Below are positions 640-15,287 of a stretch of 15,357 nucleotides of DNA, piece by piece. This DNA is from a virus, in the UHGV virus genome UHGV-1775856, one strand, 5' to 3'. The first letter of the stretch is position 1; each line of letters starts with the position of its first letter. A model generated the notes under the pieces. That model had not been told where the DNA came from and searched no databases. It worked only from the letters and a program-made list of their open reading frames with translations. A program made the position numbers and the translations under genes.

Positions 640-652
640 TACCCTTCCTTCC

Positions 653-677
653 AACCGGCTATGTTGGCCGGTTTATT
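653..677 (+). terminator. putative intrinsic terminator after the 130-aa ORF
   Basis: Stem AACCGGCT (653-660), 5-nt loop, GGCCGGTT (666-673), followed by TTTATT. Confidence 0.4.
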
Positions 678-681
678 CAAC

Positions 682-690
682 TTATCCACA
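682..690 (+). promoter_or_regulatory. DnaA box, perfect match to the consensus TTATCCACA, at the left edge of the plasmid origin
   Basis: Exact 9-mer TTATCCACA, immediately upstream of a GATC cluster and iterons, as in P1-type oriR. Confidence 0.55.
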
Positions 691-695
691 GCATA

Positions 696-752
696 GATCC
701 AATAAACAGATCCCAAAGAGAACCTAGGAAGATCCAAAGAAGATCCCGGATC
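696..752. promoter_or_regulatory. cluster of five GATC (Dam) sites in 57 bp, embedded in AGATCC-like heptamer repeats; origin methylation/SeqA region
   Basis: GATC at 696, 709, 731, 742 and 749. P1 oriR is known to hold five Dam sites in heptamer repeats next to DnaA boxes and iterons. Confidence 0.5.
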
Positions 753-793
753 GCTGTAAGCCGCGCCGTTCGTGGCCTGAAACGGGATCAACA

Positions 794-900
794 TTGACTA
801 TACGCGATTTTATGTTGACTGTGTGCGATTTTATGTTGACTGCACGCGATTTATTGTTGACTATACGCGACAGAAACGTTGACTGTACGCGATTTTAGAG
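794..900 (+). repeat. five direct iterons (core TTGACTRYRYGCGAT) at 21-22 bp spacing; RepA binding sites of the origin (incC-like)
   Basis: Copies start at 794, 815, 836, 857 and 879, spaced 21, 21, 21 and 22 bp (two helical turns), directly upstream of repA. Confidence 0.8.
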
Positions 901-973
901 CCTGAATATTCACAGCTGTTGATAACAGTCATCTAAATTAACGCCAGGCCGCGCCACACATGGAGAAACCACG

Positions 974-1858
974 ATGCCGGAAGAAAGTAAAGGCTTCCTT
1001 AGCGTTGAAGAAGTTGCAGGAAATACAGGAGAAATCCACAGCCTGAAGCCCAATAACAACAGCACTATACAACCCATAGCTTTGTTGCGCTTAGGTGTGT
1101 TTGTGCCAACCTTAAAATCTACCAATGTGGCGCTACGTCGCGGATCGTCAGTTACAACAAACACAACGAACGCAACCGAAGAACTATCAAGCCTCAAAAT
1201 TGTTGAGCAGGAAGGCTATGAGGGAATTGAAATTCATGGTCCACGCCTGGATATGGATACTGATTTTAAGGTGTGGGTGGGCATAACCTCCGCGTTGTTT
1301 GACTATGCTCCTGATGATGACGGCATAATCACCCTGCCATTCTCCGAGTTTGCCGATCGATGCGGCTATCCACGTAAGCGCCTTTCAAAGGCGTTCCGTA
1401 AAAGTATTGATGACTCTCTGACACGCATTCAGCAGACAGTTGTCAAATTCCGCTTCCCGGCGGCAAAAGGTCATCTCAATAACATTAACGTCAACTTGTT
1501 GGCATATAGCAGCCTGAATACCGAGCTTGATGTTATCGAGATCCAGCCGCAAAAACAGCTATCTGAACTTTACTATGTTGACTATAAGCGAATCCTGAAG
1601 CTGAAGATGCTGGATAAGCTCGGGCGCAAAGAGACGGCCAAGGTGCTGTATACATTCTTTGAGGCTCTACCCGCCAACCCGGCACCTGTCAGCATTGAGC
1701 GCCTTAGAGCAAGGCTTAATCTCAAATCATCCGTTAGCGTGCAAAATAGCGTTATCAGAAAAGCCATGAAAGATTTGGAAGCTATTGAATATCTTAAATT
1801 TTCAGAGATAAAAAACGGCAGAAAAATCGGCTTCCAGATCCATAAGCGCAATCCATAA
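974..1858 (+). CDS. repA: plasmid replication initiator RepA (P1/RepFIB-like, iteron-binding)
   Basis: 294-aa ORF flanked on both sides by iteron arrays. It contains blocks I recall as conserved in P1-type RepA (QPIALLRLGVFVP, GPRLDMDTDFKVW, C-terminal HKRNP), but the overall sequence and the iterons differ from the P1 19-bp iteron, so this is a divergent allele. Confidence 0.85.
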   Translation: MPEESKGFLSVEEVAGNTGEIHSLKPNNNSTIQPIALLRLGVFVPTLKSTNVALRRGSSVTTNTTNATEELSSLKIVEQEGYEGIEIHGPRLDMDTDFKVWVGITSALFDYAPDDDGIITLPFSEFADRCGYPRKRLSKAFRKSIDDSLTRIQQTVVKFRFPAAKGHLNNINVNLLAYSSLNTELDVIEIQPQKQLSELYYVDYKRILKLKMLDKLGRKETAKVLYTFFEALPANPAPVSIERLRARLNLKSSVSVQNSVIRKAMKDLEAIEYLKFSEIKNGRKIGFQIHKRNP

Positions 1859-1860
1859 TA

Positions 1861-2116
1861 TTGACTATATGCGATAGCGAGAAGTTGACTATAGGCGACA
1901 TTCGTTGACGCTGGTGGATTTTTGCTGGCGTCAATATTCTGCAAGTCGCTATTGAGATGGCTTTTAGGGTCATTTCATCGCGTATAGTCAACGTTTCTCC
2001 CGACAATATCTTACATAGTCGATCTTTGGTGGAGTTAAATCGACTACAGTCAACTTTTGACTGTAGTCACATCGCGCATAGTCAACTATTCAAATTAACC
2101 TTCGCGCATAGTCAAC
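1861..2116. repeat. second iteron field downstream of repA, with copies in both orientations (incA-like copy-control locus)
   Basis: Plus-oriented TTGACT cores at 1861, 1885, 1905 and about 2056; minus-oriented copies (seen as GCGCATAGTCAA or CGTATAGTCAACG) at about 1927, 1981, 2043, 2073 and 2103. Several form inverted pairs. Confidence 0.7.
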
Positions 2117-2150
2117 ATTTGCGCGGTTCTCATCAAGCAGTGGTATTGAT

Positions 2151-2960
2151 ATGCAAGAAGAGAAACAACACTACCTCTACGTTCTGGTGCCAGAGAACGG
2201 AGATACTTTTAAAATCGGCATTTCATGTGGTCCATTGGCACGGTTTAAAGGGCTACAAGTGAGTCCCGATTTTGCGCTTTCACGGGTCTATCGTGGTACA
2301 CGTTTGGCAATGGTTAATCTTGAGCGGGCTTTACACGCAACCTTTTTCCCCTGGAATGCGCCGTGGGAGAAAAGCGTCGGTGGCGGGCATACTGAATGGT
2401 TTACACGAGAGTGTCTTGATAAGGTTTTGGCTCATATCGAATATCTAAATGATATGTGGGGAGGGATTCTCGAGCGCATTAAGTCGAATGATTTACTTCA
2501 GCGTCCAGTAGATGCTGCTTGCTCTTTCGAAAAAGAGCTGGATGTTACTTCTATCGTGACTTTCAAAGATGACGCAGGAATGAGGGACGTGGCTTATGTC
2601 TCCATATCTGGCTATGAACCGGACGCGATCCGCGCTCAATGTGAATTGCTGAAAGCAATGTTTATGCTTCGGACTAAATATCCCTGGGATACAGGGCGGG
2701 TGTGCTTCCCTATGGAAGAGTTAACCGCCACCATTGATTCCCAGCTTTACCACGATAATCCAGAGAAGTTTTTTAGCCTTTTAGCCGGTAATGGGCTTAA
2801 CTGTGTGTCCGGGCTGGGGCGAAGTAGAATCCAACATGCCTCGCTCTTCGGTCCCTTCTTTTACGATCGACACGGGTACTTTGAGGCTGAACTTCCGGCG
2901 CTTACGCGTGCTATAGATACTATCGATTTCGAACGATTATTCGCTGCTCTTAGCAAATAA
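2151..2960 (+). CDS. T5orf172/GIY-YIG-like domain protein, 269 aa; N-terminal nuclease-like domain plus a C-terminal region of about 160 aa of unknown function
   Basis: N-terminus carries the T5orf172/MUG113 signature: YLYVL, KIGIS, R, LH..F, GGHTEWF, in the right order and spacing. The gene starts about 35 bp after the last iteron and ends at a strong terminator. It lies between the replication and partition modules, where P1 (from memory) has no gene. Confidence 0.6.
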   Translation: MQEEKQHYLYVLVPENGDTFKIGISCGPLARFKGLQVSPDFALSRVYRGTRLAMVNLERALHATFFPWNAPWEKSVGGGHTEWFTRECLDKVLAHIEYLNDMWGGILERIKSNDLLQRPVDAACSFEKELDVTSIVTFKDDAGMRDVAYVSISGYEPDAIRAQCELLKAMFMLRTKYPWDTGRVCFPMEELTATIDSQLYHDNPEKFFSLLAGNGLNCVSGLGRSRIQHASLFGPFFYDRHGYFEAELPALTRAIDTIDFERLFAALSK

Positions 2961-2965
2961 CACTG

Positions 2966-2990
2966 ATGCCCCTGAACGGGGCTTTTTTGT
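2966..2990 (+). terminator. rho-independent terminator after the T5orf172-like gene
   Basis: GCCCC (2968-2972), loop TGAAC, GGGGC (2978-2982), then TTTTTT. Confidence 0.7.
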
Positions 2991-3077
2991 GCCTTTCTTG
3001 TAACTCTCAATCGTGCAAAATGAACCAAACATGCAGAGAATGCTATGTACAAGCATCTACGCATACATTATTATTTT

Positions 3078-3113
3078 ATGCAGCATTTTTAATTAAATTC
3101 AAAAATACAGCAT
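3078..3113. promoter_or_regulatory. putative par operon promoter/operator: imperfect 13-bp inverted repeat in an AT-rich leader
   Basis: ATGCAGCATTTTT (3078-3090) and AAAAATACAGCAT (3101-3113) match 11 of 13 as inverted repeats, just upstream of the parA Shine-Dalgarno; ParA autoregulates at such a site in P1. Confidence 0.4.
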
Positions 3114-3128
3114 AAAGGATGACTTTCG

Positions 3129-4325
3129 ATGAGTGATTCCAGCCAGCTTCACAAGGTTGCTCAAAGAGCAAACAGAATGCTCAATGTTCTGACTGAACAA
3201 GTACAGTTGCAAAAGGATGAGCTACACGCGAACGAGTTTTACCAGGTCTATGCGAAAGCGGCACTGGCAAAATTGCCTCTACTGACTCGAGCGAACGTTG
3301 ACTATGCCGTAAGTGAAATGGAAGAAAAGGGTTATGTTTTCGATAAACGCCCTGCTGGCTCTTCAATGAAATATGCGATGTCAATTCAGAACATCATTGA
3401 CATATATGAACATCGCGGAGTGCCAAAATACCGGGATCGCTACAGCGAAGCGTATGTGATTTTCATCTCCAATCTTAAAGGCGGTGTGTCAAAAACTGTA
3501 TCGACGGTTTCTCTGGCGCATGCAATGCGTGCCCACCCTCATCTTCTGATGGAAGATTTAAGGATTCTGGTTATTGACCTTGATCCGCAATCTTCAGCAA
3601 CGATGTTTTTAAGCCATAAACACTCTATTGGTATCGTAAACGCAACATCTGCACAGGCTATGTTGCAGAATGTAAGCCGTGAAGAGCTGTTAGAGGAGTT
3701 TATTGTTCCTTCTGTTGTACCTGGGGTTGACGTTATGCCTGCGTCGATTGACGATGCCTTTATTGCATCCGATTGGAGAGAGCTGTGCAATGAGCATCTA
3801 CCGGGTCAGAACATCCATGCTGTCCTGAAAGAAAATGTGATTGATAAGCTGAAGAGCGATTATGACTTTATCCTCGTTGATAGTGGTCCTCACCTTGACG
3901 CCTTCCTGAAAAATGCTTTGGCCTCGGCCAATATACTGTTTACACCTCTGCCGCCAGCAACTGTCGATTTCCACTCATCGCTTAAATACGTTGCCCGCCT
4001 TCCTGAGTTGGTAAAACTCATTTCGGATGAAGGCTGCGAGTGCCAGCTTGCGACTAACATTGGTTTTATGTCCAAGTTGAGTAACAAGGCAGATCATAAG
4101 TATTGCCATAGCCTGGCTAAAGAAGTGTTCGGTGGGGATATGCTTGATGTCGTCCTCCCTCGCCTTGACGGTTTTGAACGCTGCGGCGAGTCTTTTGACA
4201 CTGTTATTTCAGCTAACCCGGCAACGTATGTTGGTAGTGCTGATGCATTGAAGAACGCGCGAATTGCCGCGGAAGATTTTGCTAAAGCAGTTTTTGACCG
4301 TATTGAATTTATCAGATCTAACTGA
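3129..4325 (+). CDS. parA: partition ATPase ParA (type Ia, with N-terminal DNA-binding extension)
   Basis: 398 aa; deviant Walker A KGGVSKT; length and sequence recognised as P1 ParA-like; followed 16 bp later by parB. Confidence 0.92.
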   Translation: MSDSSQLHKVAQRANRMLNVLTEQVQLQKDELHANEFYQVYAKAALAKLPLLTRANVDYAVSEMEEKGYVFDKRPAGSSMKYAMSIQNIIDIYEHRGVPKYRDRYSEAYVIFISNLKGGVSKTVSTVSLAHAMRAHPHLLMEDLRILVIDLDPQSSATMFLSHKHSIGIVNATSAQAMLQNVSREELLEEFIVPSVVPGVDVMPASIDDAFIASDWRELCNEHLPGQNIHAVLKENVIDKLKSDYDFILVDSGPHLDAFLKNALASANILFTPLPPATVDFHSSLKYVARLPELVKLISDEGCECQLATNIGFMSKLSNKADHKYCHSLAKEVFGGDMLDVVLPRLDGFERCGESFDTVISANPATYVGSADALKNARIAAEDFAKAVFDRIEFIRSN

Positions 4326-4341
4326 GGAGTAAGAAACCCCC

Positions 4342-5343
4342 ATGTCAAAGAAAAACAGACCAACAATTGGGCGAACCCTTAATCCTTCAATATTAAGCGG
4401 ATTTGATAGTTCTTCAGCCTCTGGCGATCGAGTCGAGCAGGTATTCAAGTTATCAACTGGTCGCCAGGCCACATTTATTGAAGAGGTAATACCTCCGAAC
4501 CAGGTAGAAAGCGATACCTTTGTTGATCAGCATAACAACGGGCGTGACCAGGCATCTCTTACGCCAAAATCATTAAAAAGTATCCGAAGCACTATTAAGC
4601 ATCAGCAATTTTACCCTGCAATAGGTGTTAGACGGGCTACAGGGAAAATTGAAATTTTGGATGGTTCCCGGCGTCGAGCTTCTGCCATCTTAGAGAACGT
4701 AGGGTTGCGGGTTTTAGTCACGGACCAGGAGATCAGCGTTCAGGAAGCGCAAAATTTAGCGAAAGACGTTCAGACAGCATTGCAGCACAGCATTCGAGAA
4801 ATAGGTCTGCGTTTGATGCGAATGAAAAATGATGGGATGAGTCAGAAGGATATTGCAGCCAAAGAAGGGCTGTCTCAGGCGAAGGTCACGCGTGCTCTCC
4901 AGGCAGCGAGTGCTCCGGAAGAATTAGTCGCCCTTTTCCCTGTTCAGTCGGAATTAACCTTTTCGGACTACAAAACGCTTTGTGCTGTTGGCGACGAAAT
5001 GGGGAACAAGAATTTAGAGTTTGATCAGCTTATTCAAAACATATCCCCGGAAATAAACGACATCTTATCCATTGAAGAAATGGCCGAAGATGAAGTTAAA
5101 AATAAAATCCTGCGCTTGATAACAAAGGAAGCCTCACTACTCACGGATAAAGGTTCTAAAGATAAGTCCGTAGTTACTGAATTATGGAAATTTGAGGACA
5201 AGGATCGCTTTGCAAGGAAGCGCGTGAAAGGCCGTGCATTTTCTTATGAGTTTAATCGACTTTCAAAAGAGCTACAGGAAGAACTCGACAGGATGATTGG
5301 GCATATCCTTAGAAAGAGCCTCGATAAAAAGCCGAAGCCTTAA
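4342..5343 (+). CDS. parB: partition centromere-binding protein ParB
   Basis: 333 aa; sequence recognised as P1 ParB-like; immediately followed by a parS-like site. Confidence 0.92.
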   Translation: MSKKNRPTIGRTLNPSILSGFDSSSASGDRVEQVFKLSTGRQATFIEEVIPPNQVESDTFVDQHNNGRDQASLTPKSLKSIRSTIKHQQFYPAIGVRRATGKIEILDGSRRRASAILENVGLRVLVTDQEISVQEAQNLAKDVQTALQHSIREIGLRLMRMKNDGMSQKDIAAKEGLSQAKVTRALQAASAPEELVALFPVQSELTFSDYKTLCAVGDEMGNKNLEFDQLIQNISPEINDILSIEEMAEDEVKNKILRLITKEASLLTDKGSKDKSVVTELWKFEDKDRFARKRVKGRAFSYEFNRLSKELQEELDRMIGHILRKSLDKKPKP

Positions 5344-5344
5344 A

Positions 5345-5432
5345 CTTTCGCCATTCAAATTTCACTATTAACCAACTGTTTTTAAAGTAAATCCATCTAA
5401 AATTTCAAGGTGAAATCGCCACGATTTCACCT
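5345..5432. other. parS: parS centromere: box A (ATTTCAC) and box B (TCGCCA) motifs flanking an AT-rich, IHF-site-like centre
   Basis: Box B TCGCCA at 5348-5353 and 5416-5421; box A ATTTCAC at 5359-5365 and 5424-5430, plus an inverted ATTTCA at 5411-5416; the arrangement matches published P1 parS as I recall it. Confidence 0.8.
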
Positions 5433-5488
5433 TGGATTTTACCTTCCTCCCCTACTCCCGAAAAAAATAAAAAAATTGCTTGTCACGA

Positions 5489-5517
5489 GAAAGTCAACAA
5501 GTGACTTTCAATAAAAT
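5489..5517 (+). promoter_or_regulatory. candidate promoter for the structural operon: perfect 8-bp inverted repeat GAAAGTCA-ACAAG-TGACTTTC followed by a -10-like ATAAAAT
   Basis: Arms at 5489-5496 and 5502-5509, then AATAAAAT at 5510-5517. P1 late promoters are reported to carry an inverted repeat centred near -22 plus a -10 element; I do not recall the exact consensus. Confidence 0.35.
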
Positions 5518-5568
5518 CTCTTCCGAAAAGGGATTCACACAAGTGCCTTGTGTTTAAGGAAGAGTAAA

Positions 5569-7275
5569 TTGAGTAACTTACGCGAATACCAGAATCGTAT
5601 TGCAGATATCGCAAAACGCTCTAAAGCTGTGCTTGGCTGGGCAAGCACTGCGCAGTTCGGTACTGATAACCAATTCATTAAAGATGATGCCGCGCGTGCC
5701 GCATCTATCCTTGAAGCTGCACGTAAAGACCCGGTTTTTGCGGGTATCTCTGATAATGCCACCGCTCAAATCGCTACAGCGTGGGCAAGTGCACTGGCTG
5801 ACTACGCCGCAGCACATAAATCTATGCCGCGTCCGGAAATTCTGGCCTCCTGCCACCAGACGCTGGAAAACTGCCTGATTGAGTCCACCCGCAATAGCAT
5901 GGATGCCACTAATAAAGCGATGCTGGAATCCGTCGCAGCAGAGATGATGAGCGTTTCTGACGGTGTTATGCGTCTGCCTTTATTCCTCGCGATGATCCTG
6001 CCTGTTCAGTTGGGGGCAGCTACCGCTGATGCGTGTACCTTCATTCCGGTTACGCGTGACCAGTCCGACATCTATGAAGTCTTTAACGTGGCAGGTTCCT
6101 CTTTTGGTTCTTATGCTGCTGGTGATGTTCTGGACATGCAATCCGTCGGTGTGTACAGCCAGTTACGCCGCCGCTATGTGCTGGTGGCAAGCTCCGATGG
6201 CACCAGCAAAACCGCAACCTTCAAGATGGAAGACTTCGAAGGCCAGAATGTACCAATCCGAAAAGGTCGCACTAATATCTACGTTAACCGTATTAAGTCT
6301 GTTGTTGATAACGGTTCCGGCAGCCTACTTCACTCGTTTACTAATGCTGCTGGTGAGCAAATCACTGTTACCTGCTCTCTGAACTACAACATTGGTCAGA
6401 TTGCCCTGTCGTTCTCCAAAGCGCCGGATAAAGGCACTGAGATCGCAATTGAGACGGAAATCAATATTGAAGCCGCTCCTGAGCTGATCCCGCTGATCAA
6501 CCACGAAATGAAGAAATACACCCTGTTCCCAAGCCAGTTCGTTATCGCGGCTGAGCACACGGTACAGGCGGCGTATGAAGCACAGCGTGAATTTGGTCTG
6601 GACCTGGGTTCCCTACAGTTCCGCACCCTGAAGGAATACCTGTCTCATGAACAGGATATGCTGCGTCTTCGCATCATGATCTGGCGTACTCTTGCGACCG
6701 ACACCTTTGACATCGCTCTGCCGGTTAACCAGTCCTTTGATGTATGGGCAACCATCATTCGTGGCAAATTCCAGACTGTATATCGCGACATTATTGAGCG
6801 CGTTAAATCTTCTGGTGCGATGGGGATGTTTGCTGGTGCTGATGCAGCATCTTTCTTCAAACAGTTGCCGAAGGATTTCTTCCAGCCAGCCGAAGACTAT
6901 ATCCAGACTCCGTATGTTCACTACATCGGTACCCTGTTCGGTAACGTGAAAGTGTACGAAGTACCTGCTGGTATTTGTAAGAACTTAACGACAGAGAACA
7001 TTCAGTTCAGCTCGATGGATGTGCTGTGCTACGTCCGTGATGAAAATCCGGGTAAAGCAGGCTTCGTGACTGGTGATGCTGTCCCGGCTATCCCGTTCCA
7101 GCATCCGACCACTCCGGCGCTGGTCAACCGTACCACACTGTGGGGTTCGGCTATCAACGATATGCACCCACGCAACGGCGCTGATTACTTCACTCGTGTA
7201 ACGCTGACAATGGCCAAAAAAGGCGGGCTTAACTTCATTAGCGGCGACACGATTGATGCCGGTGACTCTGAGTAA
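5569..7275 (+). CDS. large virion structural protein, possibly the major head protein (P1 gene 23 position); start assigned to TTG at 5569
   Basis: Long ORF (track 5548-7275) with no in-frame ATG near the 5' end; TTG at 5569 sits 6 nt after AAGGAAG. It is first in an operon with a sheath-like gene and is followed by a GC hairpin. The head assignment rests on position only. Confidence 0.7.
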   Translation: MSNLREYQNRIADIAKRSKAVLGWASTAQFGTDNQFIKDDAARAASILEAARKDPVFAGISDNATAQIATAWASALADYAAAHKSMPRPEILASCHQTLENCLIESTRNSMDATNKAMLESVAAEMMSVSDGVMRLPLFLAMILPVQLGAATADACTFIPVTRDQSDIYEVFNVAGSSFGSYAAGDVLDMQSVGVYSQLRRRYVLVASSDGTSKTATFKMEDFEGQNVPIRKGRTNIYVNRIKSVVDNGSGSLLHSFTNAAGEQITVTCSLNYNIGQIALSFSKAPDKGTEIAIETEINIEAAPELIPLINHEMKKYTLFPSQFVIAAEHTVQAAYEAQREFGLDLGSLQFRTLKEYLSHEQDMLRLRIMIWRTLATDTFDIALPVNQSFDVWATIIRGKFQTVYRDIIERVKSSGAMGMFAGADAASFFKQLPKDFFQPAEDYIQTPYVHYIGTLFGNVKVYEVPAGICKNLTTENIQFSSMDVLCYVRDENPGKAGFVTGDAVPAIPFQHPTTPALVNRTTLWGSAINDMHPRNGADYFTRVTLTMAKKGGLNFISGDTIDAGDSE

Positions 7276-7301
7276 TCAGGGGAAGTTCTCCGTTTAACAT
7301 A

Positions 7302-7320
7302 GCGCCCCCGTGCGGGGCGC
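7302..7320 (+). other. GC-rich hairpin with no U-tract between the 575-aa and 529-aa genes; possible partial terminator or mRNA stabiliser
   Basis: GCGCCCC (7302-7308), loop CGTGC, GGGGCGC (7314-7320). Confidence 0.35.
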
Positions 7321-7335
7321 ATAACAGGGAAAGTT

Positions 7336-8925
7336 ATGTCTCAATATTCAATTCAACAGTCATTAGGTAATGCATCCGGCGTCGCGGTTAGCCCGATCAA
7401 TGCCGATGCGACGTTATCTACCGGTGTTGCATTAAATAGCAGCTTGTGGGCTGGTATTGGCGTATTTGCGCGTGGCAAGCCGTTTACTGTTCTTGCGGTT
7501 ACTGAGTCCAATTACGAAGATGTTCTCGGCGAACCGCTGAAGCCGTCTTCCGGCTCACAGTTCGAACCAATTCGCCATGTATACGAAGCTATTCAGCAAA
7601 CATCTGGTTATGTTGTTCGCGCTGTTCCGGATGATGCGAAGTTCCCGATTATTATGTTCGATGAATCAGGCGAACCGGCTTACAGTGCGTTGCCATACGG
7701 TTCTGAAATTGAACTTGATAGTGGCGAAGCCTTTGCTATCTACGTTGATGATGGTGATCCGTGTATTTCACCTACCCGTGAGTTAACCATCGAAACGGCA
7801 ACAGCGGACAGCGCGGGTAATGAACGCTTCCTCTTAAAACTGACCCAGACGACTTCGCTCGGCGTGGTAACGACCCTGGAGACACACACTGTGTCTTTGG
7901 CGGAAGAAGCGAAAGATGACATGGGCCGCTTGTGTTATCTGCCTACGGCTCTGGAAGCCCGTTCTAAATATCTGCGCGCGGTTGTTAATGAAGAGCTGAT
8001 TTCGACAGCGAAAGTAACAAACAAAAAATCGTTGGCGTTCACTGGCGGTACCAACGGCGATCAGTCGAAAATCTCAACCGCTGCGTACCTGCGTGCGGTG
8101 AAAGTGCTGAACAATGCGCCGTACATGTACACCGTTGTTCTCGGCCTGGGGTGCTATGACAATGCGGCGATCACTGCGTTAGGTAATATCTGTTCTGATC
8201 GCCTGATTGATGGCTTCTTTGATGTCAAACCGACATTGACGTACACGGAAGCGATCTCTGCTGTTGAAGATACCGGTTTACTTGGTACCGATTATGTAAG
8301 CTGTGCTGTCTATCATTTCCCGTTCTCCTGCAAAGACAAATGGACCCAATCCCGCGTGGTCTTCGGTCTGTCTGGCGCGGCGTATGCGGCGAAAGCTCGT
8401 GGCGTCAAGAAAAACTCCGATGTCGGCGGTTGGCATTACTCACCGGCTGGTGAAGAACGTGCCGTCATAGCTCGTGCATCACTTCAGCCGCTGTATCCTG
8501 AAGACACCCCGGACGAAGAAGCTATGGTCAAGGGCCGACTCAATAAAGTATCTGTAGGTACTTCGGGCCAGATGATCATCGATGATGCTTTAACTTGCTG
8601 CACGCAGGACAACTATCTGCATTTCCAGCACGTCCCATCCCTGATGAACGCAATCAGCCGTTTCTTTGTCCAGTTAGCCCGACAGATGAAGCATAACCCG
8701 GACGGCATTACTGAGTCTGGCCTGACTAAAGGGATGACCAAACTTTTGGATCGCTTTGTCGCCTCCGGCGCTCTGGTGGCTCCTCGTGATCCTGATGCTG
8801 ACGGTACAGAACCGTATGTGCTGAAAGTTACGCAGGCGGAATTCGATAAATGGGAAGTAGTCTGGGCCTGCTGCCCGACTGGCGTAGCCCGTCGTATCCA
8901 GGGCGTACCGCTGCTTATTAAGTAA
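7336..8925 (+). CDS. contractile tail sheath-like protein
   Basis: 529 aa; AGGGAAAG Shine-Dalgarno. The segment AAYAAKARGVKKNSDVGGWHYSPAG resembles the recalled P2 FI sheath segment (ARALGLRAKIDQEQGWHKT), and the C-terminal region has sheath-like hydrophobic periodicity; the size fits a sheath subunit. Confidence 0.7.
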   Translation: MSQYSIQQSLGNASGVAVSPINADATLSTGVALNSSLWAGIGVFARGKPFTVLAVTESNYEDVLGEPLKPSSGSQFEPIRHVYEAIQQTSGYVVRAVPDDAKFPIIMFDESGEPAYSALPYGSEIELDSGEAFAIYVDDGDPCISPTRELTIETATADSAGNERFLLKLTQTTSLGVVTTLETHTVSLAEEAKDDMGRLCYLPTALEARSKYLRAVVNEELISTAKVTNKKSLAFTGGTNGDQSKISTAAYLRAVKVLNNAPYMYTVVLGLGCYDNAAITALGNICSDRLIDGFFDVKPTLTYTEAISAVEDTGLLGTDYVSCAVYHFPFSCKDKWTQSRVVFGLSGAAYAAKARGVKKNSDVGGWHYSPAGEERAVIARASLQPLYPEDTPDEEAMVKGRLNKVSVGTSGQMIIDDALTCCTQDNYLHFQHVPSLMNAISRFFVQLARQMKHNPDGITESGLTKGMTKLLDRFVASGALVAPRDPDADGTEPYVLKVTQAEFDKWEVVWACCPTGVARRIQGVPLLIK

Positions 8926-8934
8926 GGAAATACA

Positions 8935-9750
8935 ATGAGCAAAAACTTTTTTCAATCCGGGGCATTTTTGGGGAATGGACTGTCTCGTTTCGCTTTGAAC
9001 TCTGATCCTGTGCAGTTGATGGAGTCTGCCCGAGCAAGCGCCGAACCGACAACAGATCCGGTTATTAATAATAATCCGAAACCGGCGGCACAGACTAACG
9101 ATAACGTTCCATCTGCCACGGCTCCTGAGCAAATCCTGGAAGGGAAAGACGGTAAAGAATGGACCGTCGAACAGGCGCACCAGATGATTCTGGAAGCTGC
9201 AAATCGAAGTGCTATGCAGAATGCGTTGAGTGATGCGGCCGACGCCGTTTTCGCCTGGGCTGATAGCGGTGATCTGACTTTCGACTCCCTTGATGGTTTC
9301 GTTCAGGCTATCGCTGGTATCTCTGATGACGACGACTCCGAAGTTACAGAAGAACAGGACGATGCCTATAACGAAGCATGGGCAAATGTTGCTGACTTCC
9401 TCGCAGCATGCGGTGTAGATGATGACCTGATCGAAGCACTGGCTGACGATGAAGACGACGACGCAGCTGCTGATGTTGGTGCCTCTATCGCTGGTTTAGA
9501 TAGCGACGACCGTGACGAACTGGAAGCGGCGTTTGTTGTTGCTGGCACTTCTGATGAAATGCTGACTGAAGCATTTAAGAAGGTTGTTCGTAACGGTGAG
9601 ATCAAACTCATCCGTAAACGCCTGCGTAAAAAACGTCTGACTGCGGCTCAAAAATCGGCGCTGAAAAAAGCGCGTCGTAAAGCCCAGACCGGCGCGGCAA
9701 AACTGGCCCGCAAAAAGTCAATGAAACTGCGCCGTAAGCGCCTCGGCTAA
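8935..9750 (+). CDS. highly acidic protein with a Lys/Arg-rich C-terminal tail, function unknown
   Basis: 271 aa; Shine-Dalgarno AAGGAAA; Asp/Glu-rich central region (for example DDDDSEVTEEQDD and ADDEDDDAAAD), and a last ~50 aa that are almost all K/R/A. Confidence 0.7.
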   Translation: MSKNFFQSGAFLGNGLSRFALNSDPVQLMESARASAEPTTDPVINNNPKPAAQTNDNVPSATAPEQILEGKDGKEWTVEQAHQMILEAANRSAMQNALSDAADAVFAWADSGDLTFDSLDGFVQAIAGISDDDDSEVTEEQDDAYNEAWANVADFLAACGVDDDLIEALADDEDDDAAADVGASIAGLDSDDRDELEAAFVVAGTSDEMLTEAFKKVVRNGEIKLIRKRLRKKRLTAAQKSALKKARRKAQTGAAKLARKKSMKLRRKRLG

Positions 9751-9785
9751 AGGAGGAGGCCGGAGAACTCCGGCCTTTAACTTGA

Positions 9786-10367
9786 ATGGCACCTATACCT
9801 TATGGGGTTTACAGCCAGGCTGACGGTGTATCGCCATATCTGAAAGTTACTTTAACGAACTCTCAGTACCAGGTTACCGGATATATCAGCCAGGGAGCGG
9901 CAATGAACATGGCCCAGAATTGGGAAGCGCCGTTTACCGGTATGTCCATGGGATCTGTTGCTGGTGCCTTCAGTGGTTTTGCGCAGGTTGGTACTGAAAC
10001 AACGTCGGTTGCCCGTTGGAACAGCTTAATGGTTTGGGAAGGGGGAACACCGCCGACTTTCACGCTGCCAGTAACTTTCATCGCTTTGTTTGACCCATTC
10101 ACGGAGGTTTCAGGAGCTATCGCCGCATTGTCAGCGATGATTAGCCCGGAACTTAAAGATGCCAGTATTGGTGGTCGAATCCCGGAGCGTGTGACGCTAA
10201 ACATTGGTCGCCGGATCAACATCATTGATGTCGCTATCCAGGACATAAGTTTCGATCTCGATGCGCCCAGGGACAGCAATGGGCATTTCCTGAAAAACAC
10301 CGTCAACCTCCAGTTGACCGGTTCTTCGATATATAACAGCTCCGATATTGTTCGGGCGTTCCAGTAA
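9786..10367 (+). CDS. hypothetical protein in the tail/baseplate-associated module
   Basis: 193 aa, co-directional and tightly packed in the structural operon; the nearest Shine-Dalgarno (AGGAGGAGG, 9751-9759) is separated from the ATG by a hairpin. Confidence 0.65.
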   Translation: MAPIPYGVYSQADGVSPYLKVTLTNSQYQVTGYISQGAAMNMAQNWEAPFTGMSMGSVAGAFSGFAQVGTETTSVARWNSLMVWEGGTPPTFTLPVTFIALFDPFTEVSGAIAALSAMISPELKDASIGGRIPERVTLNIGRRINIIDVAIQDISFDLDAPRDSNGHFLKNTVNLQLTGSSIYNSSDIVRAFQ

Positions 10368-10378
10368 AAGGATTTTAT

Positions 10379-10888
10379 ATGGGGCACAATAATACTAAGG
10401 GAAACCGTAAATTTATTAAGGGCCGCTATACTGCCAACGCGGCCAAAGGCGAACGACTGGTATCTTCTGAATTCCAGCTCACTTTTGCAGGCCATGAAGA
10501 TATCAGCGTACTGGTTCGCACGTCGCAAATTCCTGAAATGACCCGCGAGGATGTGGAGGACTATGGTCCGAATGGTGTGAAGTTCAACCAGCACGGTCCA
10601 ATTCGAAACTCTGGGGAAATCCAGGTCCAGTGCGTGGAGACTATCGAAGGCGATATTCTTCAGTTCATTAAAGATCGCATTGCGGCGAAGGACTATGTTG
10701 ATATCACGATGGCTGCGACCCCTGAATCCAAATCTTCCGGGGTTAACGCTGTGACAAAAGCTGCTACAACAATTGAAATGTTGGACTGCAAAATCTACAG
10801 TGATGCAATCGACTTTAGTACCGAAGATGTGACTGCTGCTGTGCGCCCGTCACTTCGTATCGTCTACAACTGGATTGAGTGGGATTAA
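10379..10888 (+). CDS. hypothetical protein, possible tail tube or baseplate component
   Basis: 169 aa; AAGGA Shine-Dalgarno 6 nt before the ATG; last gene before a strong terminator; the size is typical of contractile-tail tube or baseplate subunits. Confidence 0.7.
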   Translation: MGHNNTKGNRKFIKGRYTANAAKGERLVSSEFQLTFAGHEDISVLVRTSQIPEMTREDVEDYGPNGVKFNQHGPIRNSGEIQVQCVETIEGDILQFIKDRIAAKDYVDITMAATPESKSSGVNAVTKAATTIEMLDCKIYSDAIDFSTEDVTAAVRPSLRIVYNWIEWD

Positions 10889-10906
10889 GAGTCATCCCTT
10901 GTATTT

Positions 10907-10931
10907 TAAAGCTCCTTCGGGAGCTTTTTTT
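10907..10931 (+). terminator. rho-independent terminator closing the structural operon
   Basis: AAAGCTCC (10908-10915), loop TTCG, GGAGCTTT, then a run of seven T. Confidence 0.75.
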
Positions 10932-10991
10932 ATAACTATTTTATATAAACATGCATCGATAACATTGTCTGGAGTTTTATGTTAGATTATT

Positions 10992-11008
10992 AATGTTCTA
11001 ATAAACTA
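10992..11008 (+). promoter_or_regulatory. C1-repressor-operator-like site upstream of the 210-aa gene
   Basis: AATGTTCTAATAAACTA matches the P1 C1 operator consensus ATTGCTCTAATAAATTT at 13 of 17 positions, including the CTAATAAA core, inside an AT-rich promoter-like region. Confidence 0.35.
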
Positions 11009-11059
11009 CAATTATTGAGGTAGATGTTTGTGCCTGTACTGTTAAAGGGGGACTCTAAA

Positions 11060-11656
11060 ATGGCTGTGATTCCAATGTCGTACTCCCCGGGTACTGTCGC
11101 TCGTCGATTTTCGATCCTGGACGGAGTTACCATCCAGGGTGTGCTTTACCAGGTTATATGGGATTCCAAAACCCCATTTGCAGCTGTAATAGAGGCTGCG
11201 CCTTCTATTATCGATGGTGATATGCGCCATAAGGTTGTCGCTACTCTTGAACTTCAACGTCGCCCGCAGCTTGAAGGCGTACTGGTAAGGAAGTTCTGGG
11301 AGGATAGCGATGTTGCCCAGATTGAAGGTATCGTGGTTGATGGAACCGTCCGGGATGTCGGTTTAGCTACTTTTGTTTACGAAACCGTAGCCTCAAAAGC
11401 TGGTGTTGTTTTGCTCAGTGATAATGAGCAATACGAAGGTGGAAAAGCTCTTTGGCAACACATCGCCCGTCGCTCTTCCGAGCTAAAAGTGTTTATCCTT
11501 GACACCGATGCCGCTCAGTATTACCCGTTTGACGGCGAACGTGTTTGCTATGACGGGGTAAGTATTCCTGAATCCGAGATATGGAGTGAACACCCAGATC
11601 GAAGTAAGCATGGGGTTGTTCTGGTCGCTGAATCCATAATTGGAAATGCGGCATAG
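11060..11656 (+). CDS. hypothetical protein, about 200 aa, function unknown; likely C1-controlled
   Basis: ORF track 11024-11656. ATG at 11060 has AAGGGGG about 9 nt upstream; the ATG at 11024 has GAGGT only 3 nt upstream. It has its own promoter region after the operon terminator. Confidence 0.65.
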   Translation: MAVIPMSYSPGTVARRFSILDGVTIQGVLYQVIWDSKTPFAAVIEAAPSIIDGDMRHKVVATLELQRRPQLEGVLVRKFWEDSDVAQIEGIVVDGTVRDVGLATFVYETVASKAGVVLLSDNEQYEGGKALWQHIARRSSELKVFILDTDAAQYYPFDGERVCYDGVSIPESEIWSEHPDRSKHGVVLVAESIIGNAA

Positions 11657-11838
11657 CAGTAAAAAATTCCTTGCTCCTTAAAAGGGGAGAGGGTTAATCT
11701 ACGTATGCTAAGCATAGAGATGGCCTCAGATTAATGTTAAGCGTCTTGCAGGACGCGTAATGTTATCTGGGGCGTTCTTCTATCTGCTTTTCGGGTAATG
11801 CCTGAAGCAGATAGCCTCAAGCACCCGTAACGATTGTA

Positions 11839-12165
11839 TCAATGTCTGGCTTTTTTTCTATAGAAATCACCAGGAAGGGTGAATATCCACATCAGAAGAA
11901 ATGTTGCAGCAAACATGATCCCTAATGGCCAGACCGCGCCAAAGAAAATCCATACTAAGATCTCCTCTGTTCGTTCTTTGCGGTCGATATCGACAAGCAT
12001 TCTTCGGCTGATCATGTATACACAGAAGCCAATACAAACATATCCTGCAAAAGCGATCGCTAACTGTAAAAAATCAGATTGCCTCTCCGACCTCAAACTG
12101 AAAACGCCAGGTGACTCCAGATTAGAGCAATCTATCACCCTCTGAATCCTGCCGGTATACCCCAT
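11839..12165 (-). CDS. possible small membrane protein with two hydrophobic helices, overlapping the 3' end of repL
   Basis: Two hydrophobic segments (LAIAFAGYVCIGFCVYMI and ILVWIFFGAVWPLGIMFAATFLLMWIF); no convincing Shine-Dalgarno at any candidate start (12165, 12015 or 12000); the position matches where P1 has the small rlf genes downstream of repL, by recollection. Confidence 0.3.
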   Translation of the reverse strand: MGYTGRIQRVIDCSNLESPGVFSLRSERQSDFLQLAIAFAGYVCIGFCVYMISRRMLVDIDRKERTEEILVWIFFGAVWPLGIMFAATFLLMWIFTLPGDFYRKKARH

Positions 12166-12980
12166 TGTTCGTTATCTTTATTTTTGGCTAAAACCGCATT
12201 AAGAGCTTCGTTTACCGTCATGCAATGCGGCAGATTATCGAAGTTTGATACACCGCCAATATCAGGAGAACGCTTGTTCTTCAGGTAAGCATATTTCCGC
12301 GCTGCCGCCTCTACTTTCTGCTTGAACTCATGTTTTTGAGCGCGTTTTTTGGATAACCGCAGATTGTCAGCCTTTGTTTTTGCCTCAGCGATCCATGAAG
12401 TCAATTTTTTGAGTCTGGTCGTTCCGGCACCGCCGGAAACTGATCTTTTTGTTTTTTTAACTTGTGACTTCTTATTCTTTATTGCCACGTCATCCTGACA
12501 GGGGGAGGGGGTATCATTTTGACATGGGGGTGTGGATAAAAAATTAAATAAAGCCAATGTCTTAGCGAGAACAGCTTTAACCTTGGTTGCCGCTGAAGAG
12601 ATCTTTAATTTGCTTTCAATCAGCGCATTTTTGGCTTGTTGTGCGAAGGCCAAAAAGGATGGTGTAAACCGGTACAGGTTAGCGCGACGTTCACGGTGAT
12701 CGCCGATAACAATCTCTACAGACAGAATTCCTTTGTTTACAGCTTCACGGAATGCACGAACGACGGTTGATTGGCTATAACCAGTTTCTGCCGCGATCAG
12801 GCGGTGAGGCTTGTGAATGAAGTATTCACTGGTTGTTGCCGCTAGATTTGCACATTGCGACAGGATATGCCCGGCGCTACGGGATAGACCGGAGTGTGTT
12901 ACAAAGCAGGCCAATTCATAGCCAGAAAAAGTAAAATCGCTCATCGTTATACAGCTCAGGAAAGTGACTTTAGCCAGCAT
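12135..12980 (-). CDS. repL: lytic replication protein RepL
   Basis: 281 aa, directly downstream of kilA in the same orientation and under a C1 operator, as in the P1 lytic replicon; the RepL length matches my recollection; the N-terminal third looks like a winged-helix domain. Confidence 0.8.
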   Translation of the reverse strand: MLAKVTFLSCITMSDFTFSGYELACFVTHSGLSRSAGHILSQCANLAATTSEYFIHKPHRLIAAETGYSQSTVVRAFREAVNKGILSVEIVIGDHRERRANLYRFTPSFLAFAQQAKNALIESKLKISSAATKVKAVLAKTLALFNFLSTPPCQNDTPSPCQDDVAIKNKKSQVKKTKRSVSGGAGTTRLKKLTSWIAEAKTKADNLRLSKKRAQKHEFKQKVEAAARKYAYLKNKRSPDIGGVSNFDNLPHCMTVNEALNAVLAKNKDNEQWGIPAGFRG

Positions 12981-13009
12981 TACAATGCTGGTGGTTCTTA
13001 CTACGTCTG

Positions 13010-13810
13010 TTAGCGCGTTGCCGCGACAGGTACCAGCACACCAGCATCAAGCAATCGCTTCATCAGCCACTGCTGACCTTTGCCGGTTATACGAGTCGTG
13101 AAAGAAATCCTGCTTCCATTGCTTGTATCGATCACGGTTTCTTTAAGGGTGAAATACCCACGGGATATGTATTCTTGTTTGGGGACGTTCCTGCGTTCAC
13201 CGGTTGCGATCAGAATTCCGTTATCACGCAACCAGGTGAAGAGATAGTTTTGGCCCAGGCCGAGCACTTTGGCATAGTTGCCGATTAGAACCCCGCTGGC
13301 GGTAGCAACGCGTTCGGCGAATTCGACTTTAGGTGCATCCATCAGCATTTTTTGCTCCAGCCGTTGCTTTTGCTCTGCCAGGTCAGCAGCCAAACGGAGA
13401 GCTTCTGGGAGGCTCTTCGGAATAGCAGGTTGTAATCTTCCGGCTCGATAGTCGATAAATGTCTGGTTTACCTTCAGCCGAAACGCGGGAGAAATCCAGC
13501 CTGCGTACTCCACTGCGAGCAATTCATGGGCAAAAGTGCCGCCGCCACGGCCTTCGAACGAAACTATGCAATTCTGCATAGTTTCTTTTTCAAGCTCTTC
13601 GATGAGCTGTTTGGCTGACAGCGTTCTTAGCCATTGAGCTGGCGCTTTATGGGCACCGAGTCCGCTCGCTCTGTGTAGAGCATTAAGGTTGTAACGGCCA
13701 GCGCGGTCGGTCGTAATTTCAACACCACAAATAACGGGCAGAGTGGTTGAAGGATCGACATTTTGATGAAGGTTTGATATATTCATATCCGCATTGAATG
13801 TTTGTTGCAT
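13010..13810 (-). CDS. kilA: KilA (KilA-N domain at the N-terminus, KilAC domain at the C-terminus)
   Basis: 266 aa, the P1 KilA length as I recall it; GGAG Shine-Dalgarno 6 nt before the ATG at 13810; the C-terminal ~130 aa are clearly paralogous to the C-terminus of the upstream ant gene. Confidence 0.85.
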   Translation of the reverse strand: MQQTFNADMNISNLHQNVDPSTTLPVICGVEITTDRAGRYNLNALHRASGLGAHKAPAQWLRTLSAKQLIEELEKETMQNCIVSFEGRGGGTFAHELLAVEYAGWISPAFRLKVNQTFIDYRAGRLQPAIPKSLPEALRLAADLAEQKQRLEQKMLMDAPKVEFAERVATASGVLIGNYAKVLGLGQNYLFTWLRDNGILIATGERRNVPKQEYISRGYFTLKETVIDTSNGSRISFTTRITGKGQQWLMKRLLDAGVLVPVAATR

Positions 13811-13879
13811 TTTTTCTCCAAATTTGCATCAACCTTCAATCACCAGCTCGAAATGGTGATTCTTTGCACTTAGAAAACG

Positions 13880-13896
13880 AAATTTATTAGAGCAAA
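13880..13896 (-). promoter_or_regulatory. C1 repressor operator (Op53-like) in the kilA-repL promoter region
   Basis: The minus strand reads TTTGCTCTAATAAATTT, a 16 of 17 match to the P1 C1 operator consensus ATTGCTCTAATAAATTT, about 70 bp upstream of the kilA start. Three GATC sites lie just upstream at 13909-13931. Confidence 0.65.
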
Positions 13897-13941
13897 TTTT
13901 TCTGATTCGATCCAGATCGGGTTGGACGATCTGCTCAGAAA

Positions 13942-13968: not shown

Positions 13969-13974
13969 CTTTTG

Positions 13975-15236: not shown

Positions 15237-15287
15237 AGTTACGGCCTCACAATCAGGTTTAACAACCTGCTACCCGCTGTCAAACAG

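Follow-up and report, generated by a model that had tools for sequence, protein, structure and literature searches.

A p0111-type replication module beside a P1-type partition system in a P1-like virus genome

Organisation of the replication region

The window, by which we mean the whole 15,357-nt stretch of the virus genome UHGV-1775856 analysed here, carries a replication cassette between upfA and the par operon, the same slot that the IncY replicon occupies in P1. The features of the region are listed in Table 1, in which L005 and L006 denote two diverged relatives that, together with the window, represent three p0111-type lineages.

Table 1 Features of the replication and partition region, in window coordinates
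Feature	Position	Strand	Remarks
Terminator-like hairpin and T run after upfA	651-667	+	
DnaA box TTATCCACA	682-690	+	perfect match; invariant in the window, L005 and L006; aligns with the P1 DnaA boxes
Five GATC (Dam) sites at 696, 709, 731, 742, 749	695-754	+	heptamers (A/G)GATC(C/G)N
GC-rich block GCCGCGCC	760-767	+	last position with detectable P1 similarity
Sixth GATC	786-789	+	abuts the first iteron; kept in two diverged relatives; absent from P1
Five direct origin iterons (incC-like)	791-811, 812-832, 833-853, 854-874, 876-896	+	spacing 21/21/21/22
Inverted DnaA box TTATCAACA	917-925	-	one mismatch; between iterons and repA
repA, 294 aa	974-1858	+	p0111-type initiator (Rep_3 WH1-WH2 family)
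Iteron-like site inside repA, core TTGACTATAAGCGA	1575-1595	+	one mismatch
Control (incA-like) iteron field	1858-2118	both	six strong and two weak copies
Forward control iterons	1858-1878, 1882-1902, 1902-1922 (weak)	+	
Reverse control iterons	1974-1994, 2005-2025 (weak, decayed), 2036-2056, 2068-2088, 2098-2118	-	spacing 31/31/32/30
T5orf172/GIY-YIG-like gene, 269 aa	2151-2960	+	nuclease-like N-terminal domain (~5-115) and lineage-specific C-terminal domain
Intrinsic-terminator-like hairpin GCCCC-TGAAC-GGGGC, then TTTTTTG	2968-2989	+	closes the cassette
Right breakpoint	3027-3030		sharp; P1 locus 2774-2777; the Ppar -35 lies 16 nt further on
parA, P1 type	3129-4325	+	Pfam
parB, P1 type	4342-5343	+	Pfam
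parS (incB)	5348-5430	+	P1-type A boxes and TCGCCA B boxes intact; aligned with the annotated P1 parS

An earlier note on this DNA had described an origin of P1-like layout, and its elements were recovered here: a perfect TTATCCACA at 682-690, followed at 695-754 by all five of the proposed GATC heptamers (AGATCCA, AGATCCC, AGATCCA, AGATCCC and GGATCGC). Five GATC sites fall within 58 bp where about 0.28 would be expected, given 74 GATC across the 15,357-bp window. This block (695-754) is about 75% identical to the Dam-site block of P1, is almost invariant among the three p0111-type lineages, and is presumed to be the region of methylation-dependent opening and sequestration. The association of a DnaA box and clustered GATC sites with adjacent iterons is a trait of P1-family replicons, and here the block aligns at about 75% identity with the DnaA and Dam sites annotated in P1. 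At the place of the inverted DnaA box on the right, both L005 and L006 carry a perfect TTATCCACA.

The origin iterons share the core TTGACTRYRYGCGAT and conform to the pattern TTGACTRYRYGCGA, which was found at 12 places in the window where 1.39 would be expected, a count of at least 12 being reached in none of 200 shuffles. The 21-bp period of five direct copies claimed previously was upheld, the last interval being 22 bp, and a direct-iteron array of this kind, upstream and at helical-repeat spacing, is again characteristic of P1-family replicons. No match above 8 bits was found anywhere in the window with a PWM built from 14 annotated P1 iterons, and the P1-type 19-bp iterons (GATGTGTGCTGGAGGGAAA) that define IncY are absent from the window. 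A further iteron-like site lies within repA; 17 nt of it (1577-1593) form the longest run identical across the window, L005 and L006, and no internal iteron was found in P1 repA.

The second iteron field downstream of repA, also a trait of the P1 family, agrees with the incA-like field in both orientations described earlier, although the count of about nine copies is revised to six strong and two weak ones. Among the three p0111-type lineages, whose repA genes are 71-76% identical at the nucleotide level, the left-hand block of the origin and the iterons hardly vary. A hairpin (TTGACGCTGG...CTGGCGTCAA) at 1905-1934 was considered as a repA terminator and dropped, because its left arm, a weak iteron, is alone conserved in L005 and L006. 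Our literature search returned only an unrelated review, and no experiment dealing with the iterons of p0111-type elements, their binding by RepA, copy number or incompatibility.

RepA and typing of the replicon

The initiator is a Rep_3 protein with the WH1-WH2 arrangement, and its homology to P1 RepA (40-42% identity; BLASTP 42% over 272 aa, E 9e-71) is a further P1-family trait. It matched Pfam Rep3_C at 27.3 bits (cut-off 21.1), Rep3_N at 22.0 bits, slightly below the cut-off of 22.4, and PHROG 775 with an E value of 2.6e-134. NCBIfam gave no family for RepA or the T5orf172 protein, and among PDB sequences RepA had no match below E 0.39. The blastn alignment with P1 repA was limited to a 59-nt stretch at 76%, compared with the level of about 95% nucleotide identity to P1 repA used for IncY typing. 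The earlier statement that most of RepA and the iterons differ from the P1 IncY replicon was thus correct, at 40-42% for the protein and with no P1-type iteron present.

A consensus scan of the + strand over 760-974 gave no sigma-70 promoter for repA, so that autoregulation through a promoter overlapping the iterons, as in P1, is assumed. One candidate picked by eye, TTGACT in the last iteron with GAATAT 19 nt further on, was poor and is not conserved in L005.

MOB-suite labels in PLSDB proved uninformative or misleading ('IncHI1B' for a carrier 99.9% identical to the window, 'rep_cluster_2164' for L005), and the replicon was therefore typed by direct comparison with the repA of pO111_2, p0111 being defined as at least 95% nucleotide identity over most of the length of that reference gene. 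The window repA is 98.5% identical to it over 885 of 885 nt (NC_013370.1), which places the divergent RepA of the earlier note in the p0111 type. From the record title, we take NC_013370 to be the RefSeq copy of AP010962.1. The latter is the p0111 reference (PMC11165635). The window RepA is 100% identical to that of RCS47 and 99.7% identical to those of SJ46 and JL22, and the three elements are 97-99% identical to the window over 660-2150. The RepA of SJ46 has been reported to be 42% identical to P1 RepA (PMC5241659).

Boundaries of the cassette and the partition system

As far as position 640, the window is about 98% identical to P1. Identity falls to about 75% over 660-767, is undetectable over 768-3026 and returns to 98% from 3027-3030. 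On the left, 55-60 matches per 60 nt were counted until about 640, followed by 46 of 52 and 42 of 56, and we place the left edge of the cassette at 651-667 because the high identity to P1 ends about there. The right edge is sharp, lies at the same point in other plasmids, and the flanks on both sides are 97-98% identical to P1; the breakpoints against P1 that the earlier note had proposed to look for can in this way be located. The two findings that would have spoken against it were not made, as repA and the iterons lie in the stretch without nucleotide similarity to P1 and divergence is not uniform across the window.

The near-identity of ParA, ParB and parS to P1 suggested earlier held throughout, with 99.7% identity for ParA, 100% for ParB and intact parS boxes. 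The corresponding values against P7 are only 57% and 40%, and the partition system is of P1 specificity (incB) by all three of its components.

A p0111-type maintenance replicon alternative to IncY

Taken together, positions 641-3026 very probably constitute a p0111-type maintenance replicon, a homologous and long-diverged alternative to the IncY replicon that is controlled in the P1 manner, is exchanged by recombination in its flanks, and forms with IncY an old dimorphism.

For the P1 oriR, the work of Abeles, Chattoraj and colleagues has established what DnaA, Dam methylation, incC, incA and handcuffing do. By analogy, RepA monomers would bind the five 21-bp origin iterons, and theta replication would be started by RepA and by host DnaA acting at the boxes on either side, the Dam-methylated GATC heptamers serving as the region of opening and sequestration. 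The downstream iteron field would titrate RepA and pair with the origin ('handcuffing'), holding the element at about one copy per chromosome. As the window differs from P1 both in RepA (about 41% identity) and in iteron sequence, no cross-titration is expected and the incA/incC incompatibility should be removed, so that IncY and p0111 types are expected to be compatible in replication. As ParB and parS are identical to those of P1, incompatibility through partition (incB) should remain, and a partial incompatibility with P1 is expected from the P1-type par.

Exchange between IncY and p0111 would proceed through homologous recombination in the flanks of about 98% identity. The modular exchange put forward in the earlier note is supported by the sharp right edge and these flanks, but its description as a swap takes P1 as the point of reference. 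Both replicon alternatives, with identical cassette boundaries, are also found in a second clade of P1-like elements, which is about 72% identical: L006 has a p0111-like RepA (84%) and the T5orf172 gene, and JK004 an IncY-like RepA (85%) with P1-like iterons. The backbones of these two elements are 88-95% alike and are interrupted by an unalignable block with the same boundaries, and the between-clade difference of each replicon type is about that of the backbone (71-73% nucleotide identity). In PLSDB, the closest relative of the L006 replicon was the cassette of E. coli, at about 72%. Since the same two alternatives occur in the second clade, the dimorphism appears, as judged from these two outgroup elements, to be old; the swap may have run in either direction, and the state seen in the window is not necessarily the derived one.

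The T5orf172 gene and other explanations

The gene that the earlier note had placed at the module boundary was confirmed as a T5orf172 gene, but it belongs to the p0111 cassette and does not merely mark its boundary, being found in about 400 of 404 cassette carriers (401 tblastn matches, 391 of them near full length) and in L006. Its nuclease domain matched Pfam PF10544 at 26.9 bits (cut-off 20), with residues Y10, K21, G23, R31, H62 and E82 conserved. Between the two clades the protein is 44-45% identical, against 84% for RepA. In pO111_2 the gene is broken into two ORFs, and L005 lacks it; it is therefore dispensable for replication. In a predicted structure made from a 4-row alignment (pLDDT 69), the C-terminal half weakly resembles Rep WH1 domains, iteron-binding initiator domains being its best, though weak, structural matches (Foldseek E at least 0.08, TM 0.34-0.40). 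A search for a C-terminal half copied from the cognate RepA, as in Odn, was negative (BLASTP E 3, hhalign probability 0.1%).

It was considered whether this protein drives or polices the dimorphism, either as a homing endonuclease cutting the IncY allele and co-converting the replicon or as an Odn-like nuclease acting on rival iterons by means of a Rep-like winged-helix domain. The placement of the gene as the last of the cassette on the right in both clades, its conserved GIY-YIG/T5orf172 domain and the fast evolution of the protein are compatible with such a role, as are the cleavage of PLE iterons by ICP1 Odn, which joins T5orf172 and RepA_N domains (PMC8263062), and the occurrence of T5orf172 genes at exchange boundaries (PMC10448857). 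Against it are the marginal structural scores, the lack of sequence similarity to the cognate RepA, the loss of the intact gene from pO111_2 and L005, and the fact that homologous recombination between the 98%-identical flanks is enough to account for the exchange; no target site was identified. We consider the explanation unlikely. In its specific form, a nuclease tethered by a Rep WH1-like domain to the origin or iterons of a competing replicon, or to the cassette-less IncY allele, and acting as a weapon or as a homing element by which the p0111 cassette is maintained and spread, it is equally doubtful; if true, however, the protein would be the phage-plasmid counterpart of ICP1 Odn and could help to explain the persistence of an ancient replicon polymorphism with two alleles and fixed boundaries across P1-like clades.

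Recent capture of the replicon by a P1 backbone from an unrelated non-phage plasmid, for instance of IncFIB type, is very improbable. The RepA is annotated as 'RepFIB/RepB family' and is slightly nearer to RepFIB/SSU5-type initiators (45-49%) than to P1 RepA (42%), and a few cassette carriers are large or conjugative plasmids. However, no RepA of a plasmid or phage falls in the range of 60-80% identity, all matches of at least 80% being the same cassette or its L005/L006 variants; the next-nearest RepA proteins in plasmids and phages, of RepFIB or SSU5 type, are less than 50% identical. The cassette moreover has the exact P1 layout in the same slot with 75% identity in the DnaA/GATC block, the P1-like element of about 72% identity has it at the same place and as diverged as its backbone, and p0111 is confined to the P1-like community in the literature (PMC9603915).

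Divergence of a P1-type replicon in place by local acceleration, with no exchange, would suit two homologous and collinear replicons and the graded left edge (98%, then 75%, then nothing), but is already contradicted and scarcely credible, as similarity on the right changes over only a few bases and the flanks are 98% identical, both alternatives recur in the second clade in backbones 88-95% alike, and the Salmonella core-gene tree needs about 17 switches (PMC11165635). The graded block on the left, moreover, hardly varies among p0111-type lineages, and is so to be counted as a part of the cassette that is under functional constraint.

Distribution and significance

The homologous exchange of p0111 and IncY replicons favoured here is a reading that is already published (PMC9603915, PMC11165635, PMC10879196, PMC5241659). 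The IncY/p0111 dimorphism has been described, with repA'(p0111) and gp57 of JL22 replacing repA(IncY) (PMC9603915); 132 p0111 and 94 IncY elements were counted and about 17 type switches inferred on the core-gene tree of Salmonella elements (PMC11165635), and 63 of 119 phage-plasmids were typed as p0111 (PMC10879196). In PLSDB, the rep gene, the T5orf172 gene and P1-type par are contiguous in 382 plasmids, which gives the number of elements combining this repA with P1-type par that the earlier note had left to be counted, and the IncY replicon is accompanied by P1-type par in 143. The p0111 cassette was present in 419 of 5,426 complete E. coli genomes. A p0111 module takes the place of the IncY module of P1 in about half of all P1-like phage-plasmids, and its occurrence next to a P1 partition system that is left unaltered is widespread and has been reported before.

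The result mostly confirms textbook and surveillance knowledge, according to which P1-like phage-plasmids are of IncY or p0111 type with the rest of the genome in common. These elements are frequent carriers of ESBL, mcr-1 or cnf3 genes, and their replicon typing relies on this distinction. The published descriptions that we found name repA alone, and the design of mini-replicons and incompatibility probes needs the details of the iterons described here, namely their sequence, spacing and orientation and the intragenic copy. The dimorphism across clades and the unusual T5orf172 protein should be regarded as modest leads rather than results.

Comparison with known systems

The likeness of the T5orf172 protein to ICP1 Odn, in which a T5orf172 domain is joined to a Rep-like DNA-binding domain (PMC8263062), is marginal and lies in the predicted structure. 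The order of domains is reversed, the nuclease being N-terminal in the window protein, and the putative Rep-like fold is of WH1 (Rep_3) type as against RepA_N in Odn.

Replicons of RepFIB type, found in IncFIB plasmids and SSU5-like phage-plasmids, belong to the same initiator family, with RepA 44-49% identical over nearly the full length. They show no nucleotide similarity to the window except about 128 nt at about 70% within repA in some Klebsiella phage-plasmids, and their contexts differ.

In P1, the origin iterons have the same 21/21/21/22 spacing as in the window (L001, 1298/1319/1340/1361/1383), but their sequence is unrelated (TTGACTRYRYGCGAT in the window, ATGTGTGCTGGAGGG in P1). P1 has two DnaA boxes in tandem on the left where the window has one, and the right DnaA box is inverted in the window, unlike in P1. 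The control field runs as three forward and five reverse copies in the window, and as three forward and six reverse copies (31/31/31/30/31) in the incA of P1 and P7; the T5orf172 gene before par is an extra gene relative to P1.

The closest systems are the p0111 carriers themselves. RCS47, SJ46, JL22 and pO111_2, the last being the plasmid of E. coli O111:H- 11128 from which the PlasmidFinder p0111 reference was taken, share with the window the order upfA, oriR, repA, iterons, T5orf172 gene, parA and parB. The T5orf172 gene is intact in the window and in two ORFs in pO111_2, and the insertion sequence that interrupts RCS47 between repL and the bplB side is missing from the window; the window otherwise shows no difference of substance from these carriers.

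Substitution of the replication module relative to P1

The 15.4-kb window belongs to a P1-like phage-plasmid of the genus Punavirus. Among phages, RCS47 matched best (98.1% identity over 98% of the window), followed in order by SJ46, several records labelled 'P1', JL22 and phi456, with the P1 reference covering only 77%. The gene order was upfA, oriR/repA, T5orf172 gene, parA, parB, parS, genes 23, 22, 21, pmgG, bplB, a variable block, repL, kilA, ant1/2 and icd.

The identity profile was computed against the P1 reference NC_005856 (Table). The right junction of the replicon was sharp: at 3027-3030, 16 nt ahead of the -35 hexamer of Ppar, P1 identity resumed over just a few bases. RepA was 40-42% identical to P1 RepA (E 9e-71), and when the window was scanned with a matrix of the 14 annotated P1 iterons, no P1-type iteron scored above 8 bits. 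ParA and ParB were 99.7% and 100% identical to those of P1, only 57% and 40% to those of P7, and the parS A and B boxes were intact; the partition module is of the P1 type, not the P7 type. ParA/ParB of RCS47 (3629-5843 in that locus) were 100% identical to those of the window (3129-5343), and hence also P1-type. The earlier note had described a RepA and iterons divergent from P1 beside a nearly P1-identical par operon, and this was borne out. As the profile and the sharp junction revealed neither high P1 identity across repA and the iterons nor uniform divergence, its interpretation as modular exchange of the replication module stands.

In the second substituted block, which corresponds to 'variable region 5' (PMC9603915), pmgF, rlfB and rlfA of P1 were replaced.

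Features of the window and identity to P1
Feature	Position	Strand	Remarks
upfA and upstream	1 to ~640		~98% to P1 (55-60 matches per 60 nt)
DnaA box, GATC heptamers, GC-rich block	660-767		~75% to P1
DnaA box, perfect	682-690		TTATCCACA
Five GATC sites	696, 709, 731, 742, 749		each within (A/G)GATC(C/G)N heptamer
Iterons, repA, control field, T5orf172 gene	768-3026		no alignment to P1 except 59 nt at 76% within repA
Five direct origin iterons	starts 791, 812, 833, 854, 876		core TTGACTRYRYGCGA
DnaA box, one mismatch	917-925		inverted
repA	974-1858
Control-field forward iterons	1858, 1882, 1902 (weak)	+	position-weight scan
Control-field reverse iterons	1974, 2005 (weak), 2036, 2068, 2098	-	position-weight scan
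Ppar, parA, parB, parS, 23, 22, 21, pmgG, bplB	3027-10930		98.0% to P1
Second substituted block	10931-12120		no alignment to P1
210-aa ORF, unknown function	11024-11656		PHROG 7522
hok/sok-type toxin-antitoxin locus	11652-11826	-	Rfam sok, 82.5 bits
108-aa ORF	11839-12165	-	by eye resembles small membrane protein
repL, kilA, ant, icd	12121-15290		97.1% to P1

Replicon type and distribution

Replicon typing of repA, a check suggested in the earlier note, assigned the replicon to the p0111 type: the gene was 98.5% identical over 885/885 nt to repA of pO111_2 (NC_013370.1, which we take to be the RefSeq copy of the pO111_2 record, AP010962.1). Both repA identity and iteron sequence spoke against the IncY type of P1 and P7, and all testable sequence-level features of a P1-family replicon were present. 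The interval 640-5440 was 98.9% identical to pO111_2, and JL22 was 97.3% identical to window 660-2150. The p0111 reference gene has been named as AP010962.1 (PMC11165635), and JL22 has been called p0111 (PMC9603915).

The interval 660-3030 was held by 404 PLSDB plasmids, 401 of them at an identity of at least 95%. A replicon contiguous with P1-type par, the pairing whose frequency the earlier note had proposed to count, was found in 382 PLSDB plasmids for the p0111 type versus 143 for IncY, the latter probably an underestimate because many records start within repA. Of 5,426 complete E. coli genomes, 419 also carried the cassette, nearly all of them on a plasmid. Plasmid NZ_CP148417.1 matches the replicon of the window at 99.9-100% identity, yet carries the MOB-suite type 'IncHI1B' in PLSDB, which looks like a mis-assigned p0111 replicon.

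Origin and control field

Each origin element listed by the earlier note (DnaA box, five GATC in heptamers, five direct iterons, repA) was found, and the architecture is real and well above chance. Five GATC sites lie in 58 bp, where ~0.28 were expected from the window-wide density (74 in 15,357 bp), and the window contains 12 iteron cores where 1.39 were expected, a count of 12 being reached in 0/200 shuffles. The origin iterons of P1 have the same 21/21/21/22 spacing (1298/1319/1340/1361/1383 in the reference locus). The window was compared with two further p0111-type lineages, E. coli plasmid pNCYU-26-73-5 (CP042620.1; L005) and a contig from run ERR2144811 (L006). Across the three, the DnaA box, five GATC heptamers, GC block and iteron cores were almost invariant and repA was only 71-76% identical at the nucleotide level; this conservation despite repA divergence is the strongest internal support for function. 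No repA promoter was found by consensus scan, and autoregulation therefore stays an assumption.

The block 660-767 matched the SSU5-like PhiR41_1 and CMS-2020a at 83%, compared with 75% for P1. These are otherwise unrelated phage-plasmids, with RepA 45% identical and repA without nucleotide similarity to the window; the origin-opening block may reflect shared constraint, or exchange separate from repA.

The control field was scanned with a position-weight matrix built from the origin iterons. Iterons in both orientations were confirmed, and the 'about nine' of the earlier note proved a mild over-count (six strong and two weak). The reverse iterons were spaced at 31/31/32/30. In P1/P7 incA, three forward iterons are followed by six reverse ones ~31 bp apart, and the layout is closer to P1 than that note could know. 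At 2005-2025 the weak reverse iteron has decayed; L005 and L006 both have a good iteron in the corresponding place. The reverse iteron at 2036-2056 and a partial forward iteron (within 2036-2072) formed a near-perfect 12+12-nt palindrome, GACTACAGTCAA CTT TTGACTGTAGTC, not seen in L005 or L006.

An iteron-like site with one mismatch, TTGACTATAAGCGA, was located within the repA coding sequence at 1575-1595; P1 repA has no internal iteron. Its 17-nt core (1577-1593) was the longest run identical across the window, L005 and L006, and third positions were conserved in 6/8 spanning codons versus 27% overall. It may be an additional site for RepA binding or control, or merely a conserved run of YVDYKRIL codons.

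Source and age of the cassette

RepA matches in plasmids and phages were either at least 80% identical (the cassette and variants) or below 50% (RepFIB, SSU5 and P1 types), with none between 50% and 80%, which argues against recent import from a known non-phage plasmid. L005 has this origin, repA (85% aa) and control field as well, set among rearranged P1-like tail genes. Its replicon (3900-5330) lacks both a neighbouring par operon and a T5orf172 gene, so the core of the replicon can move independently of the remaining cassette.

In L006, a 95.7-kb P1-like contig with ~72% identity over par-23-22 to both P1 and the window, the order is oriR - repA (84% aa) - iterons - T5orf172 (44-45% aa) - parA - parB. 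The backbone of Cronobacter phage JK004 is close to that of L006 (ParA 94.7%, ParB 88.9%, gp23 89.2%; 87.6% nt right of the replicon). The JK004 replicon has an IncY-type RepA (85% to P1), P1-like iterons (5 + 3 forward + 5 reverse) and no T5orf172 gene, and P1 aligns straight across it at 71%. The unalignable block between L006 and JK004 has the same limits as that between the window and P1: it begins just past the GATC/GC block and ends shortly before Ppar. Divergence between the clades is about equal for each replicon type and for the backbone, and both types occur in both clades. The simplest reading is therefore that the P1-like lineage has kept an old two-allele cassette system, whose types are often switched through recombination in the conserved flanks; the age of the dimorphism is read from two outgroup elements only, L006 and JK004. 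The 'replicon swap' of the earlier note is correct as a process; the state seen in the window need not be the derived one.

The T5orf172 gene

The T5orf172 gene does sit at the module boundary, as had been noted, but it belongs to the cassette: tblastn found it in 401 plasmids, all at an identity of at least 90% with nothing more distant, and it is also present in L006. Since pO111_2 has it as two separate ORFs and L005 lacks it altogether, the gene is dispensable for replication. When 5.8 billion proteins were searched by word index and 1.84 billion representatives scanned in full with HMMER, the L006 copy was the only full-length relative. Remaining matches covered only residues ~5-115, the T5orf172 domain (conserved Y10, K21, G23, R31, E58, H62, E82, W83 and F84), and the C-terminal half is specific to this lineage.

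The best matches of the C-terminal half, in the full-length model and in a separate domain model (pLDDT 69), were iteron-binding initiators; the top Foldseek ranks (RepE54, 6h24, RctB and pPS10 RepA) were marginal (E 0.08 or worse, TM 0.34-0.40). Sequence and profile comparisons showed no similarity to the neighbouring RepA. T5orf172 genes mark phage-phage exchange boundaries (PMC10448857), and Odn of ICP1, a T5orf172 nuclease with a RepA_N domain, cuts the iterons of its satellite's origin (PMC8263062); these precedents make the position and architecture suggestive. From the marginal fold match and the location, an Odn-like or homing role might be proposed, which we regard as improbable.

Comparison with known replicons

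The p0111 module is ordinary and already in the literature and typing databases. P1-like phage-plasmids were IncY in 31/55 and p0111 in 24/55, and in JL22 repA (IncY) was replaced by repA' (p0111) and an unknown gene, gp57 (PMC9603915). Among Salmonella elements, 132 were p0111 and 94 IncY, with ~17 type changes inferred on a core-gene tree (PMC11165635); typed phage-plasmids were p0111 in 63/119 and IncY in 52/119 (PMC10879196), and SJ46 RepA was 42% identical to P1 RepA (PMC5241659). Our literature search found no paper describing p0111 iterons, and the iteron anatomy may be the only new descriptive content. The surplus over what is known is modest: the iteron-level description, the trans-clade dimorphism and the T5orf172/WH1-like lead.

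The cassette most likely works like the P1 plasmid replicon. The working of P1 oriR was established by Abeles, Austin, Chattoraj and colleagues. By homology, RepA monomers would bind the five origin iterons and DnaA the flanking boxes, the Dam-methylated GATC heptamers would form the opening region, sequestered after firing, and the downstream iterons would titrate RepA and handcuff the origin, giving a low copy number. Since RepA and the iterons are both unlike those of P1, the p0111 and IncY types should not interfere via incA/incC; ParB and parS are identical to those of P1, so incB (partition) incompatibility with P1 should persist.
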